Sequence record: OR525701.1
Source of the DNA: Escherichia phage vB-Eco-KMB38
Reading direction: 5' to 3' (one strand)
Length of the DNA stretch: 64,000 bases
In this document: positions 4,892 to 23,431 of the stretch, in pieces
How the letters are laid out: each line of letters opens with the position of its first letter
How positions within the stretch are numbered: the stretch's first letter is position 1
Position numbers and translations under genes: made by a program
The notes under the pieces: model-generated
Database searches by the model: none
Seen by the model: the letters and a program-made list of their open reading frames with translations, nothing else
Told to the model about the DNA's origin: nothing

Positions 4892-6874
4892 ATGGCACTT
4901 CTCTCTCCGGGCGTTGAGCTCAAAGAAACTACCGTACAGAGTACTGTAGTTAATAACTCCACTGGTACTGCTGCCCTGGCTGGAAAATTCCAATGGGGAC
5001 CTGCATTCCAGATTAAACAAATCACCGATGAAGTTGCGTTGGTTGATATGTTTGGTACTCCTAATACGGATACAGCAGATTATTTCATGTCTGCTATGAA
5101 CTTCCTTCAATATGGTAACGACCTTCGTGTTGTACGCGCAGTCGATCGTGATACTGCTAAGAACTCATCTCCTGTGGCAGGAAACATTAATTTTACTATT
5201 TCTTCGGCTGGCACCAACTATAGAGTCGGTGATAAAGTTGTAGTTAAATATTCTACAGATATTATCGAACCAGACGGTGAAGTTACTTCGGTTGATTCTG
5301 ACGGTAAAATTTTGAATATCTTTATTCCTTCAGGTAAAATTATCGCTAAAGCGAAAGAAATCGGCGAATATCCTGAATTAGGTTCAAACTGGACTGCCGA
5401 AATGTCTGGGTCTTCTTCTGGTCTGTCTGCAGTAATTACTATTGATTCTGTTGTAATGGATTCTGGTATTCTGTTGACTGAAGTTGAAACTTCAGAAGAA
5501 GCTATTACTTCTCTAACTTTCCAAGAATCTATTAAAAAATACGGTGTCCCGGGTGTAGTTGCTCTTTATCCTGGTGAACTTGGCGACCAGCTCGAAATTG
5601 AAATCGTATCTAAAGCAGACTATGACAAAGGTGCTTCGGCCCAGTTAAAAATTTATCCTGATGGTGGTACTCGTGCATCTACTGCTAAAGCAATCTTTGG
5701 GTATGGCCCGCAAACTGATGACCAATATGCAATTATCGTTCGTCGCAACGACGCGGTAGTCCAGAGCGTAGTTCTTTCTACTAAACGTGGTGAACGCGAT
5801 ATTTATGGTAGCAATATCTTCATTGATGATTTCTTTGCTAAAGGCGCAAGCAATTATATTTTCGCTACGGCACAAGGTTGGCCAAAAGGTTTCTCTGGCG
5901 TAATCAAACTGAATGGTGGCTTATCATCTAATGAAACGGTTGAAGCCGGTGATTTAATGGAAGCTTGGGATTTGTTTGCTGACCGTGAATCGGTTAATGC
6001 ACAGTTGTTTATTGCTGGTTCTTGTGCTGGTGAATCTTTAGAAGTTGCTTCTACAGTTCAGAAACATGTTGTAGCAATTGGTGATTCTCGTCAAGATTGC
6101 TTGGTTCTTTGCTCACCGCCACGTGCAACTATAGTCGGTATTCCTGTTAATCGTGCAGTTGATAATCTGGTTGATTGGCGTACAGCGTCAGGAACTTACA
6201 CTGATAATAACTTTAATATAAGTTCTACTTATGCTGCTATTGATGGTAACTATAAATATCAATATGACAAATATAACGATGTGAATCGTTGGGTTCCATT
6301 AGCTGCTGATATCGCCGGTCTTTGTGCTCGAACAGACAATATTTCTCAGCCTTGGATGTCTCCAGCCGGTTATAACCGTGGACAAATTCTTAACGTTATT
6401 AAGCTTGCAATTGAAACTCGTCAAGCACAGCGTGATCGTTTGTATCAAGAAGCTATTAACCCTGTTACTGGTACCGGTGGTGATGGATATGTTCTGTACG
6501 GTGATAAAACTGCCACTTCTGTTCCTTCGCCATTTGACCGTATTAACGTACGTCGTTTGTTTAACATGGTTAAAACGAACATTGGTTCAGCATCCAAATA
6601 TCGCCTATTTGAATTGAACAACGCATTTACCCGTTCGTCTTTCCGTACAGAGACTTCTCAATATCTACAGGGTATTAAAGCTCTCGGTGGTGTATATAAC
6701 TTTAAAGTTGTTTGTGATACTACCAATAACACCCCAGCAGTTATCGACCGTAATGAATTTGTAGCTACTTTCTACTTACAACCTGCCCGCTCGATAAATT
6801 ATATTACGTTGAACTTTGTAGCAACAGCAACTGGCGCTGATTTCGACGAACTGATTGGTGCTGTAGGTGGCTAA
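4892..6874 (+). CDS. 18: tail sheath protein gp18
   Basis: 660 aa, preceded by TATAAATA late promoter; size and synteny match T4 gp18. Confidence 0.93.
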   Translation: MALLSPGVELKETTVQSTVVNNSTGTAALAGKFQWGPAFQIKQITDEVALVDMFGTPNTDTADYFMSAMNFLQYGNDLRVVRAVDRDTAKNSSPVAGNINFTISSAGTNYRVGDKVVVKYSTDIIEPDGEVTSVDSDGKILNIFIPSGKIIAKAKEIGEYPELGSNWTAEMSGSSSGLSAVITIDSVVMDSGILLTEVETSEEAITSLTFQESIKKYGVPGVVALYPGELGDQLEIEIVSKADYDKGASAQLKIYPDGGTRASTAKAIFGYGPQTDDQYAIIVRRNDAVVQSVVLSTKRGERDIYGSNIFIDDFFAKGASNYIFATAQGWPKGFSGVIKLNGGLSSNETVEAGDLMEAWDLFADRESVNAQLFIAGSCAGESLEVASTVQKHVVAIGDSRQDCLVLCSPPRATIVGIPVNRAVDNLVDWRTASGTYTDNNFNISSTYAAIDGNYKYQYDKYNDVNRWVPLAADIAGLCARTDNISQPWMSPAGYNRGQILNVIKLAIETRQAQRDRLYQEAINPVTGTGGDGYVLYGDKTATSVPSPFDRINVRRLFNMVKTNIGSASKYRLFELNNAFTRSSFRTETSQYLQGIKALGGVYNFKVVCDTTNNTPAVIDRNEFVATFYLQPARSINYITLNFVATATGADFDELIGAVGG

Positions 6875-10463: not shown

Positions 10464-11276
10464 ATGATCAAAGAACAACTTTTGAAAGAAGCTCAGAATA
10501 TCGAGACTTCAGTTGCTCTTAATAGTGTTTTCGAATCAGTAGAACTGTCTCCGGACGTTAAAGCTAATTTCAGCACTGTATTCGAAGCCACCGTTAAGCA
10601 GGAAGCAGTCAAACTGGCTGAATCTCATATTAAAGCCATCGCCGAAAAAGCCGAAGAAGAAGTTGAAAAGGCTAAAGAAGATGCTGAAGAGAAAGCTGAT
10701 AAAAAATTGGCTGAACAAGCTTCTAAATTCCTAGACCATCTTGCAAAAGAATGGCTCGCAGAAAACCAAATCGCAGTTGATAAAGGCATTAAAGCTGATT
10801 TGTTCGAATCCATGCTTGGTGGTCTGAAAGAACTGTTTGTTGAACATAACGTTGTTGTTCCAGAAGAATCTGTAGATGTTGTAGCAGAAATGGAAGAAGA
10901 GCTGGCCGAACATAAAGAAGAAACCGCTCGTTTGTTCGAAGAAGTTGCCAAACGTGATGCATATATCAATTACGTTCAGCGTGAAACCGCTATTAATGAA
11001 AGCGTAAAAGACCTGACTGAATCTCAGAAAGAAAAAGTTATTGGCCTGGTTGAAGGTATGGATTATTCTGACGCATTTGGTACTAAGTTAACTGCTATTG
11101 TAGAAATGGTTAAAGGTTCTACTAAAGAAGAAGCCGCTATTACCGAAAGTATAAATACAGTTGACAATGACGCTGCCGGTCTTAATTTTGTTGCCGAAGC
11201 AGTTGACACTACCACAACTCAGGTAGAACAGAATTCTAATGTAAGTTTATATGCGAAAGTCGCATCTCGTTTCTAA
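10464..11276 (+). CDS. 22: prohead core scaffold protein gp22
   Basis: 270 aa, highly charged coiled-coil-like sequence; synteny. Confidence 0.9.
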   Translation: MIKEQLLKEAQNIETSVALNSVFESVELSPDVKANFSTVFEATVKQEAVKLAESHIKAIAEKAEEEVEKAKEDAEEKADKKLAEQASKFLDHLAKEWLAENQIAVDKGIKADLFESMLGGLKELFVEHNVVVPEESVDVVAEMEEELAEHKEETARLFEEVAKRDAYINYVQRETAINESVKDLTESQKEKVIGLVEGMDYSDAFGTKLTAIVEMVKGSTKEEAAITESINTVDNDAAGLNFVAEAVDTTTTQVEQNSNVSLYAKVASRF

Positions 11277-18121: not shown

Positions 18122-18853
18122 ATGTATCACTTTGTTTATGAGACCGTAAATTTAATTAATGGTAAAAAGTACATTGGCAAACATTCTACAGAAAATTTAA
18201 ATGATTCGTATCTAGGGTCAGGTGTTGCCTTAAATCGCGCTATCAAAAAATACGGAGAAGAATCATTTAAACGTTCAATAATTAAACAATTTGAAACTTC
18301 CGCTGAAGCTTTAGAATACGAAGCTCAGTTAGTAACAGAGGATTTGGTCAAATCTAACGAGTATTATAATATGCGCCAAGGCGGTGAAGGTGGAAGGTAT
18401 AAGTACACCGAAGCTGATAAGACTAAAATGTCTAATAGTGCTAAAGAACGAATAAAGAGGCTTGGTCATAATCTTTTAGGAAAACACAGATCGGAAGAAA
18501 CAAAAAGAAAACTATCTGAAACAAATAAACGTCGATACTCTGAAGACCCAACATGCCACGGGCGGTATGGTACAGGAAAGCCAAAGATTGATAAAATTAA
18601 AGGTCCTAAAAATCCTACAACTCTAAATAAAATTTGTGTTAACAACGGTAAAGAAAACAGATTTATATCAGCCGAGGACCCGATGCCTGAAGGATTTGTA
18701 AAAGGAATGGTCCAACTTAATAGAAAATCTAGAAAGGGCTGTGAAGTAAAACCTACGACCACCGGCAGAATATGGGTAAATAACGGGGCTATAAATAAAT
18801 TAGTAAATCCGTTATCCATCCCAGATGGATATGTTAAAGGCCGTTTAAGGTAA
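18122..18853 (+). mobile_element. free-standing GIY-YIG homing endonuclease (segE-like)
   Basis: N-terminal GIY-YIG-type motif YHFVYETVNLINGKKYIGKH...R...E; C-terminal repeated xNNGxxN DNA-binding motifs; located between inh and uvsW where T4 carries segE; start chosen at the ATG behind AAGAG (track ORF starts at 18071). Confidence 0.8.
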
Positions 18854-20688: not shown

Positions 20689-20856
20689 CTATAGTAAAAG
20701 TTGGGTTTCGTTCAATTGCTCTTCTGAACTTTCTGAAACCGGCAATTGTTGGACATAATTATAACAAGGGCCAGGATGTGCCGGACCTTTGTCTGTTTCA
20801 ACAACCAATGCAGAATCGATTGGAGTTTTACAGACAACACAAATCTTATCTGACAT
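20689..20856 (-). CDS. hypothetical small Cys-containing protein (uvsY.-2-like)
   Basis: 55-aa ORF below the track threshold; AGGAGG RBS; translation MSDKICVVCKTPIDS...; terminator-like hairpin downstream. Confidence 0.5.
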   Translation of the reverse strand: MSDKICVVCKTPIDSALVVETDKGPAHPGPCYNYVQQLPVSESSEEQLNETQLLL

Positions 20857-20888
20857 GATTGCCTCCTAAGTTGAAATTACATATCTAT

Positions 20889-21113
20889 TTATACCACTCG
20901 CATGCACATATCGATACCCATATCTTTTGTATAAAAATACTCGTCGATGTACCCGGCAAACTTCCCTTTAATATAAAGGACGTCTTCGCCACAAGGATGG
21001 TCTGCCAGGATACGAATATCCTGACGACGTAGACGATACTTTTCCATTAAGAATTTAATTTCAGTTTCAAATTCTTCATCATTATTAAAGGCATCTTCAA
21101 TTGAATAGCGCAT
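20889..21113 (-). CDS. hypothetical protein (uvsY.-1-like)
   Basis: 74 aa; ATG overlaps the uvsY stop. Confidence 0.65.
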   Translation of the reverse strand: MRYSIEDAFNNDEEFETEIKFLMEKYRLRRQDIRILADHPCGEDVLYIKGKFAGYIDEYFYTKDMGIDMCMRVV

Positions 21114-21606: not shown

Positions 21607-22005
21607 TTACACTCTATTGCTTGATGCTAACTGAAGTTTGATCTGTTCGATATCATCAGGGTTATCTACGACCGAAAATCTAATCTCTACTATAACCGTA
21701 TAGTCGTCATATACTGGCGTTACACTTACAGAAAGTTTGTCGATGCGTGGCTCATAGTTACGGACGGCTGCCTGGATATTACGCTCAATCGTATCAGCTG
21801 TAAGCGGTGTCATGTTCTCGAAAAGTTCGTCGACCAAATCGCATCCAAATTCAGGGTCGAAGGGGCGTGAGCCTTTTCTAGTTGTCACTATGCCAAGAAG
21901 ACTATTTTTAATAGAACGAAGTCCTACAGAACGAGCAACGTCCTTGTTCCAATCCATACGCATTTCTGGGTCGATATCTGAATAAAGTTTATTGATATTA
22001 GACAT
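21607..22005 (-). CDS. 25: baseplate wedge protein gp25
   Basis: 132 aa, same as T4 gp25; synteny. Confidence 0.9.
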   Translation of the reverse strand: MSNINKLYSDIDPEMRMDWNKDVARSVGLRSIKNSLLGIVTTRKGSRPFDPEFGCDLVDELFENMTPLTADTIERNIQAAVRNYEPRIDKLSVSVTPVYDDYTVIVEIRFSVVDNPDDIEQIKLQLASSNRV

Positions 22006-22631
22006 TATAATAACTCAAAGAATTCTTTGAGGCCTCGTATTGTGTGAACGTGTGACGCCCCACATTTGGGACATTTAATAGGGGTTGCCAGATAAATTGA
22101 TGGCGATACCAAAAGATTTTTAATATTGATCATGTCATCTTCTGTTATAAGGCCGTAAAGGTCGTTTATTTCTGCTTCAGTTAAATCTTCAACAGGGATG
22201 GACTCTCCATTAACAAAAACAGCCTCAATACATGAAGCAATCATTAATGCGATATTTTTATCATCAAATAATTTAGGTTGACGGAACTTAATTTTAATAC
22301 CGCTGAACGAATACCAGGGATCGGCCTGTTCATCTAATTGAGTGTGCAATAAATTCATATAGACTTGAAATGAATGCCCACAGGAACAATTCCAGGTGTG
22401 TTCTTGATTCACTTCACCTAACGAATGTGCCCACAGATTTACCAACAATAGCTCGGCTTCTTGTTTAGTCAAGTTTTTAGCATTAGAGCAATTAGTGATA
22501 ATATTGTTCACTGCTGATTCAATAGTACCGGTAGCCCGCGCACCTATGAGTCCTAAATATTCTTTTAAAGTAAAGGCTCTACAATTCACTTCTTTATCGC
22601 CTAAACGTACGGTAAACGTATATTTGTACAT
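22005..22631 (-). CDS. 26: baseplate hub protein gp26
   Basis: 208 aa; synteny; late promoter upstream. Confidence 0.88.
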   Translation of the reverse strand: MYKYTFTVRLGDKEVNCRAFTLKEYLGLIGARATGTIESAVNNIITNCSNAKNLTKQEAELLLVNLWAHSLGEVNQEHTWNCSCGHSFQVYMNLLHTQLDEQADPWYSFSGIKIKFRQPKLFDDKNIALMIASCIEAVFVNGESIPVEDLTEAEINDLYGLITEDDMINIKNLLVSPSIYLATPIKCPKCGASHVHTIRGLKEFFELL

Positions 22632-22649
22632 GTTAACTCCTTTATTGTG

Positions 22650-22661
22650 TATTTATAAATA
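22650..22661. promoter_or_regulatory. bidirectional late promoter palindrome TATTTATAAATA (genes 26/25 on minus, gene 51 on plus)
   Basis: The 12-mer contains TATAAATA on both strands, between divergent starts at 22631 and 22679. Confidence 0.7.
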
Positions 22662-22678
22662 ATAGAAAAGGAGTAATT

Positions 22679-23431
22679 ATGGCTAATATAATTCGTTGTA
22701 AATTACCGGATGGTGTTCATCGTTTTAAGCCGTTCACTGTGGCGGATTATAGAGACTTTTTACTAGTTAGAAATGATATCGAACATCGTTCGCCGCAAGA
22801 ACAAAAAGAAATAATTGCCGATTTGATTGATGATTATTTTGGCGAGTACCCTAAAACATGGCAACCATTTATATTCCTGCAAGTTTTTGCAGGCTCTATA
22901 GGCAAAACAAAAGTTCCCGTTATTTTCACTTGCCCTAAATGCTCTAAAGAAAAAACTGCACCATTTGAGATATATCAAAAAGAACTAGTCGAACCTGAAC
23001 TTGATGTTGCTGGTATAAAAATACGTTTTTCTTTCCCTGAAAAGTTTTATGACAATAAAGCATTAATGATAAGTGAAAACATAAAAGAAATATATTATAA
23101 TGATGAATGGTACCCATGGAATGATTTGACTGAAGAGAACCAAATCCAAGTAATAGAAGCAATAGACATTGACTCGCTCGAGAAGGTTATTGCTTCTATG
23201 AATCCTATTAATTTGACCCTTAGATTAGGTTGTTGTGAACGTCATGTTAAAACATATACTGATATCTTAGAGGTTTTTAAATTGTTAGTTAACCCTGATG
23301 AGATTTTTACATTCTATCAGATAAACCATTCACTAGTAAAGAGTCAATACACATTGGATTCTATTATGCAAATGATTCCTGTTGAACGTGGTATTGCTTT
23401 AACATTAGTAGAAAAGGACCATAAAAAATGA
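22679..23431 (+). CDS. 51: baseplate hub assembly catalyst gp51
   Basis: 250 aa; divergent from gene 26 across a shared late-promoter palindrome. Confidence 0.88.

Follow-up and report, generated by a model that had tools for sequence, protein, structure and literature searches.

The window analysed here is a stretch of 64,000 nucleotides (64 kb) from Escherichia phage vB-Eco-KMB38 (OR525701.1), an RB69-like phage. In this region its DNA matches Escherichia phage PTK at 100% identity and RB69, of the genus Mosigvirus, at 99.2%. Between two divergent open reading frames of this window lies a 12-bp perfect palindrome, TATTTATAAATA. Both flanking ORFs match the PHROG baseplate-hub family, and the neighbouring ORFs match a gp25-type wedge subunit, UvsY and hub proteins (27 and 28 in RB69). 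The preliminary description had taken the two flanking ORFs for the divergent genes 26 (minus strand) and 51 (plus strand), and this assignment is right, since their orthologs are annotated under those names in the RB69 record. The features of the locus are as follows, the transcription starts being placed by a position rule rather than mapped.

22005–22631, minus strand: gene 26, baseplate hub subunit (PF12322)
22629–22681, both strands: extended quasi-palindrome around the 12-mer, from start codon to start codon
22637–22642, minus strand: Shine-Dalgarno sequence AAGGAG of gene 26
22643–22645, minus strand: predicted transcription start of the gene 26-25 operon (by the position rule)
22650–22657, minus strand: P26 late-promoter box TATAAATA, taken as −13 to −6, ending 18 nt before the gene 26 ATG
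22650–22661, both strands: 12-bp perfect palindrome TATTTATAAATA, made up of two overlapping late-promoter boxes
22654–22661, plus strand: P51 late-promoter box TATAAATA, taken as −13 to −6, ending 17 nt before the gene 51 ATG
22667, plus strand: predicted transcription start (A, six nucleotides past the box) of the gene 51 operon, by the position rule
22668–22673, plus strand: Shine-Dalgarno sequence AAGGAG of gene 51
22679–23431, plus strand: gene 51, baseplate hub assembly protein (PF12322), a paralog of gp26

The 12-mer occurs once in the 64-kb window, where 0.03 copies are expected, and at least one copy was found in 3 of 100 dinucleotide-preserving shuffles of the window. It takes the central place in the 47-bp spacer between the two genes, at 18 nt from the ATG of gene 26 and 17 nt from that of gene 51. 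The late-promoter octamer was found on both strands, as had been claimed from the first inspection of the sequence: TATAAATA reads at 22654–22661 on the plus strand and at 22657–22650 on the minus strand, and the two boxes have 4 bp in common, the self-complementary TATA at 22654–22657.

A late promoter of T4 consists of an 8-bp box at −13 to −6 together with an A/T-rich stretch and has no −35 element. At P26 and P51, no upstream element, whether at −35 or elsewhere, is conserved across 15 lineages, and both boxes lie directly upstream of virion structural (baseplate) genes, as expected of late promoters. Each box is also close to a strong Shine-Dalgarno sequence. The segments that follow the boxes are A/T-rich on both sides, with five A/T positions out of six after the P51 box (ATAGAA on the plus strand) and a weaker four out of six after the P26 box (CACAAT on the minus strand). 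Position 22644, which is exactly +6 for P26, is a T in the minus strand, with A at 22643 and at 22645. Because of this T and the less A/T-rich CACAAT, P26 may be weaker than P51, or its start may be shifted by one nucleotide. Among the TATAAATA sites of the window, no other late box stands upstream of gene 26. A sigma-70-type promoter in the spacer was also considered and rejected, as the region 22300–23000 contains three promoter-like matches against 2.5 expected.

The octamer itself is enriched in the window, with 18 copies against 7.8 expected, a number reached in none of 100 shuffles. Other TATAAATA sites stand 26–34 nt before large ORFs, and judged by sequence the placement of P26 and P51 is typical, although their predicted leaders are the shortest. 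The sequences upstream of these other sites are mutually unrelated. The tetranucleotide TATT, which has a probability of about 0.009 per site, precedes none of the 16 other sites; we therefore rejected the idea that TATT generally extends late promoters upstream, and its absence there indicates that the palindrome is specific to the 26/51 junction.

We took 26/51 loci from IMG/VR and from phages of other genera in GenBank and obtained 25 distinct spacers. The exact 12-mer is kept in 21 of them, as it is in one more locus that is cut at a contig end and comes on top of these 21. The distance from the 12-mer to the start codon ranges in these relatives from 17 to 33 nt on the gene 26 side and from 15 to 24 nt on the gene 51 side. 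Conservation of the element is unusually strong, since the exact 12-mer survives even where gp51 is only 39% identical, the lowest value at which it persists (Cronobacter Muldoonvirus). Across 15 clearly different lineages, all 12 palindrome positions are invariant, whereas agreement at the four flanking positions on either side never exceeds 7 of 15. An A stands at the sixth base past the box, read on the box's own strand, in 14 of the 15 lineages on the gene 51 side and in 12 of the 15 on the gene 26 side, which fits what the sequence of predicted start sites should look like. Of the outer parts of the palindrome, TATT is needed for the minus-strand promoter alone and AATA for the plus-strand promoter alone. 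As both outer halves are conserved and each serves one promoter only, we argue that both promoters are used, and from their sequence both appear to be under selection.

Several loci carry variants of the element. In one of them (L015, approximately 1465–1480), the sequence reads CATTTATAAATA and the minus-strand box is TATAAATG; a Krischvirus locus (L040, approximately 1165–1180) has the 13-mer TATTTTATAAATA, and Aeromonas phages (L041 and L043, approximately 1170–1185) have the 10-mer palindrome TATTTAAATA. The palindrome is absent in Slopekvirus-like phages and POP12, where genes 51-26-25 are co-oriented, which ties the element to the divergent arrangement. In Klebsiella phage Earwig (L044) and Pectobacterium phage POP12 (L045), the genes follow the order 48-54-51-26-25 on one strand (positions 1–2900 of both loci), and neither phage has a palindromic late box upstream of gene 51. 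In Earwig, a G+C-rich hairpin followed by T's lies just before gene 51.

The promoter pair is correct but already known, having a reported experimental precedent in T4 and a prediction in RB69. The overlapping divergent late promoters of the T4 base plate gene cluster were reportedly mapped by Scarlato and colleagues in 1989, and a related reference is Gruidl et al. 1991 (Virology 184:359). The T4 P26/P51 pair is the same as the one described here in that it lies centrally between orthologous divergent genes and has the identical 12-mer with its 4-bp box overlap, and the 12-mer is 17 nt from the gene 51 ATG in both phages. The two differ in the length of the spacer (50 bp in T4 and 47 bp here), in the distance on the gene 26 side (21 and 18 nt) and in the sequence outside the 12-mer, and the coding flanks are about 72% identical. 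In T4 (L003), where the 12-mer occupies 2951–2962, oriF(uvsY) is annotated at 1822, at a distance of approximately 1.1 kb.

For RB69, additional file 5 of Nolan et al. 2006 (PMC1524935) lists the predicted late promoters Pl:118620(+) at 118620–118662 with a score of 12.7 and Pl:118672(-) at 118630–118672 with a score of 11.2. These are the same pair as P51 and P26 because the 12-mer lies at RB69 118641–118652. The RB69 site is thus the same element in a genome 99.2% identical in this region, and the entries in the Nolan listing are predictions only. Neither the overlap nor the palindrome of the RB69 pair is discussed in the consulted parts of Nolan et al. 2006 (PMC1524935). The table from the same source (PMC1524935) includes similar overlapping pairs for RB49 and Aeh1. 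It also includes a second close pair on opposite strands of RB69, Pl:80613(+)/Pl:80684(-), at 80613–80684 of the record and outside our window, the boxes of which, as far as the table goes, appear to face each other rather than to stand back to back. In the GenBank record of the Tequatrovirus fPS-65, both octamers are annotated as predicted late promoters. A bioRxiv dRNA-seq study (10.1101/2024.04.04.588121) gives 150 T4 start sites. Our full-text literature search for overlapping or divergent late promoters and for TATTTATAAATA returned nothing relevant.

A comparison can also be drawn with bacteria, in which bidirectional promoters are said to result from a symmetric −10 element, as reportedly described by Warman and colleagues in 2021. 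In those cases as well, two opposite-strand promoters have part of an A/T-rich −10-type element in common. Unlike those promoters, the pair described here has an 8-bp gp55 box, a 4-bp overlap and predicted starts about 23 bp apart, and by analogy with T4 its activation would depend on a sliding clamp and not on sigma-70.

Taking these observations together, we consider it very probable that the 12-mer consists of two gp55-dependent late promoters of the T4 type, standing back to back and having their first four bases in common. Such a promoter function is suggested by homology to T4 and by conservation. In the mechanism we propose, polymerase carrying the phage sigma-like factor gp55 would open the DNA in either orientation. 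In the plus direction, transcription would start at about 22667 and give a 12-nt leader mRNA for genes 51-27-28 and onward, and in the minus direction it would start at about 22643–22645 and give a leader mRNA of 12–14 nt for genes 26-25. In the cryo-EM structures of the late-promoter complex at P23, the bubble extends from −12 to +2, and gp55 reads the non-template bases −12, −9 and −8, which are flipped out. On the upstream side, gp33 touches the duplex and the gp45 clamp surrounds the DNA. Transferred to the present locus, P51 would be read at the plus-strand bases 22655, 22658 and 22659 with a bubble at 22655–22668, and P26 at the minus-strand bases 22656, 22653 and 22652 with a bubble at 22656–22643.

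One polymerase would presumably exclude the other, each initiation taking a single direction, and simultaneous occupancy is very unlikely because the upstream contacts of each complex would cover the whole of the other promoter. From T4 biochemistry, P26 and P51 would be activated by oppositely oriented gp45 clamps, since activation needs a clamp of the right orientation. The genes for gp55, gp33, and the gp45 clamp and its loader are absent from the 64-kb window; RB69 encodes gp55, gp45 and gp44/62. The preliminary description had proposed that a single element could coordinate late expression of both operons. The two-way function in this proposal is supported by conservation, whereas the single element is better described as two promoters that share 4 bp and are probably never co-occupied. 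As P26 and P51 probably cannot be occupied together, "share and compete" would be more exact than "coordinate".

Three other explanations of the palindrome have to be weighed against this promoter pair. It is improbable that only P51 works, with the minus-strand octamer being a by-product and gene 26 being transcribed from elsewhere. The slightly poorer context on the minus strand, with CACAAT after the box and T at the exact +6 position, would agree with such a one-sided promoter, and so would the lower score of P26 in the Nolan HMM (11.2 against 12.7 for P51). However, TATT at 22650–22653 would be irrelevant to P51 and yet is invariant in 15 of 15 lineages, in contrast to the freely varying four bases next to it, and the same tetranucleotide stands upstream of no other TATAAATA in the window. 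Gene 26 is also left without another upstream late box, and the sigma-70-like matches at 22300–23000 remain at chance level. In T4, both transcripts have reportedly been mapped.

We see equally little probability in the palindrome being kept mainly as the site of a dimeric DNA-binding protein, such as a DsbA-like regulator, that gates both operons. Such a protein would be well served by the perfect dyad symmetry, and DsbA of T4 has been reported at A/T-rich sites overlapping two late promoters (Geiduschek review). On the other hand, two consensus octamers overlapping on TATA fully account for the palindrome, and DsbA has a low, micromolar affinity and a non-essential gene (Geiduschek review). 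The variants bear on this question as well: the half-sites of the Krischvirus 13-mer and the Aeromonas 10-mer are spaced differently, yet both strands still carry a sequence resembling the late box, and promoters therefore fit better than an operator with fixed spacing. A site for a dimeric protein could nevertheless hold in addition to the promoter function. That the palindrome is a functionless product of chance in A/T-rich DNA has next to no probability, even though 62% of the genome is A+T and the window contains 20 perfect 12-nt palindromes. Only 0.03 copies of this particular sequence, TATTTATAAATA, would be expected, and the 12-mer occupies the very middle of a divergent spacer and does not vary between genera whose flanking bases have drifted, so that the conservation data effectively refute a chance origin.

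The overlapping promoter pair lies at the centre of a wider symmetry. The arms of the extended quasi-palindrome, 22629–22643 and 22667–22681, are 15 nt long and 80% complementary, and they include the Shine-Dalgarno sequences and the start codons of both genes. An alignment of gp26 with gp51 gives 25% identity across about 200 residues (E = 2e-10), and each protein matches the full length of PF12322, so that two paralogs are arranged as a mirror image about the palindrome. From the sequence, this arrangement points to an ancient duplication, either inverted from the outset or in tandem with a later inversion.

RNA read through the spacer from either strand is predicted to form a hairpin that pairs the Shine-Dalgarno sequence and the AUG (−13.0 kcal/mol, z = −3.0, and −8.9 kcal/mol, z = −2.5), and similar folds pairing the Shine-Dalgarno sequence are predicted in most relatives. 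According to the folding model, the late transcripts would begin within the loop of this hairpin. The T4 gene e and I-TevI likewise have a late start within a potential, inhibitory stem-loop, the 5' arm of which would pair with the Shine-Dalgarno sequence in read-through RNA. Unlike in those two genes, the pairing at the 26/51 junction follows automatically from the divergent Shine-Dalgarno sequences, and the read-through RNA is hypothetical. A hairpin sequestering the Shine-Dalgarno sequence was accordingly rejected as a separately evolved element, and we count it as a side observation only.

As a discovery, the promoter pair carries little weight, being a textbook feature of the T4 baseplate-hub cluster confirmed in an RB69-type genome. 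It could, however, be a small natural system in which to study the choice of direction by a clamp-activated polymerase at a symmetric promoter, and likewise a possible effect of nick or fork polarity on the output of two assembly operons. More speculatively, and with the odds clearly against it, the 12-mer might be the frozen axis of an ancient inverted duplication of a cassette composed of late promoter, Shine-Dalgarno sequence and PF12322 gene, and perhaps also a switch that senses the nicked strand. The frozen axis is suggested by gp26 and gp51 being paralogs in mirror image. Such a switch would sense the nicked strand because each direction needs the opposite orientation of the gp45 clamp, and the split of late transcription between 26-25 and 51-27-28 would then follow the nicked strand and hence the direction of the fork. 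In T4, the nearness of oriF(uvsY) could bias the clamp orientation that reaches the promoter pair.

Two further observations concern TATAAATA sites elsewhere in the window. A consensus late box at 20886–20893 on the minus strand lies 29 nt upstream of a 55-aa ORF at 20689–20856, which is uvsY.-2 in RB69, and probably matches Pl:116810(-) of Nolan et al. This box would place a small, cysteine-containing protein with no known function under a late promoter. Five TATAAATA sites fall within ORFs on the same strand, at 6251, 9474, 11150, 18086 and 18790 on the plus strand. The site at 18790 stands 61 nt before a 504-aa ORF and that at 11150 stands 136 nt before a 522-aa ORF, and some of the five may act as internal late promoters of genes that lie further downstream.
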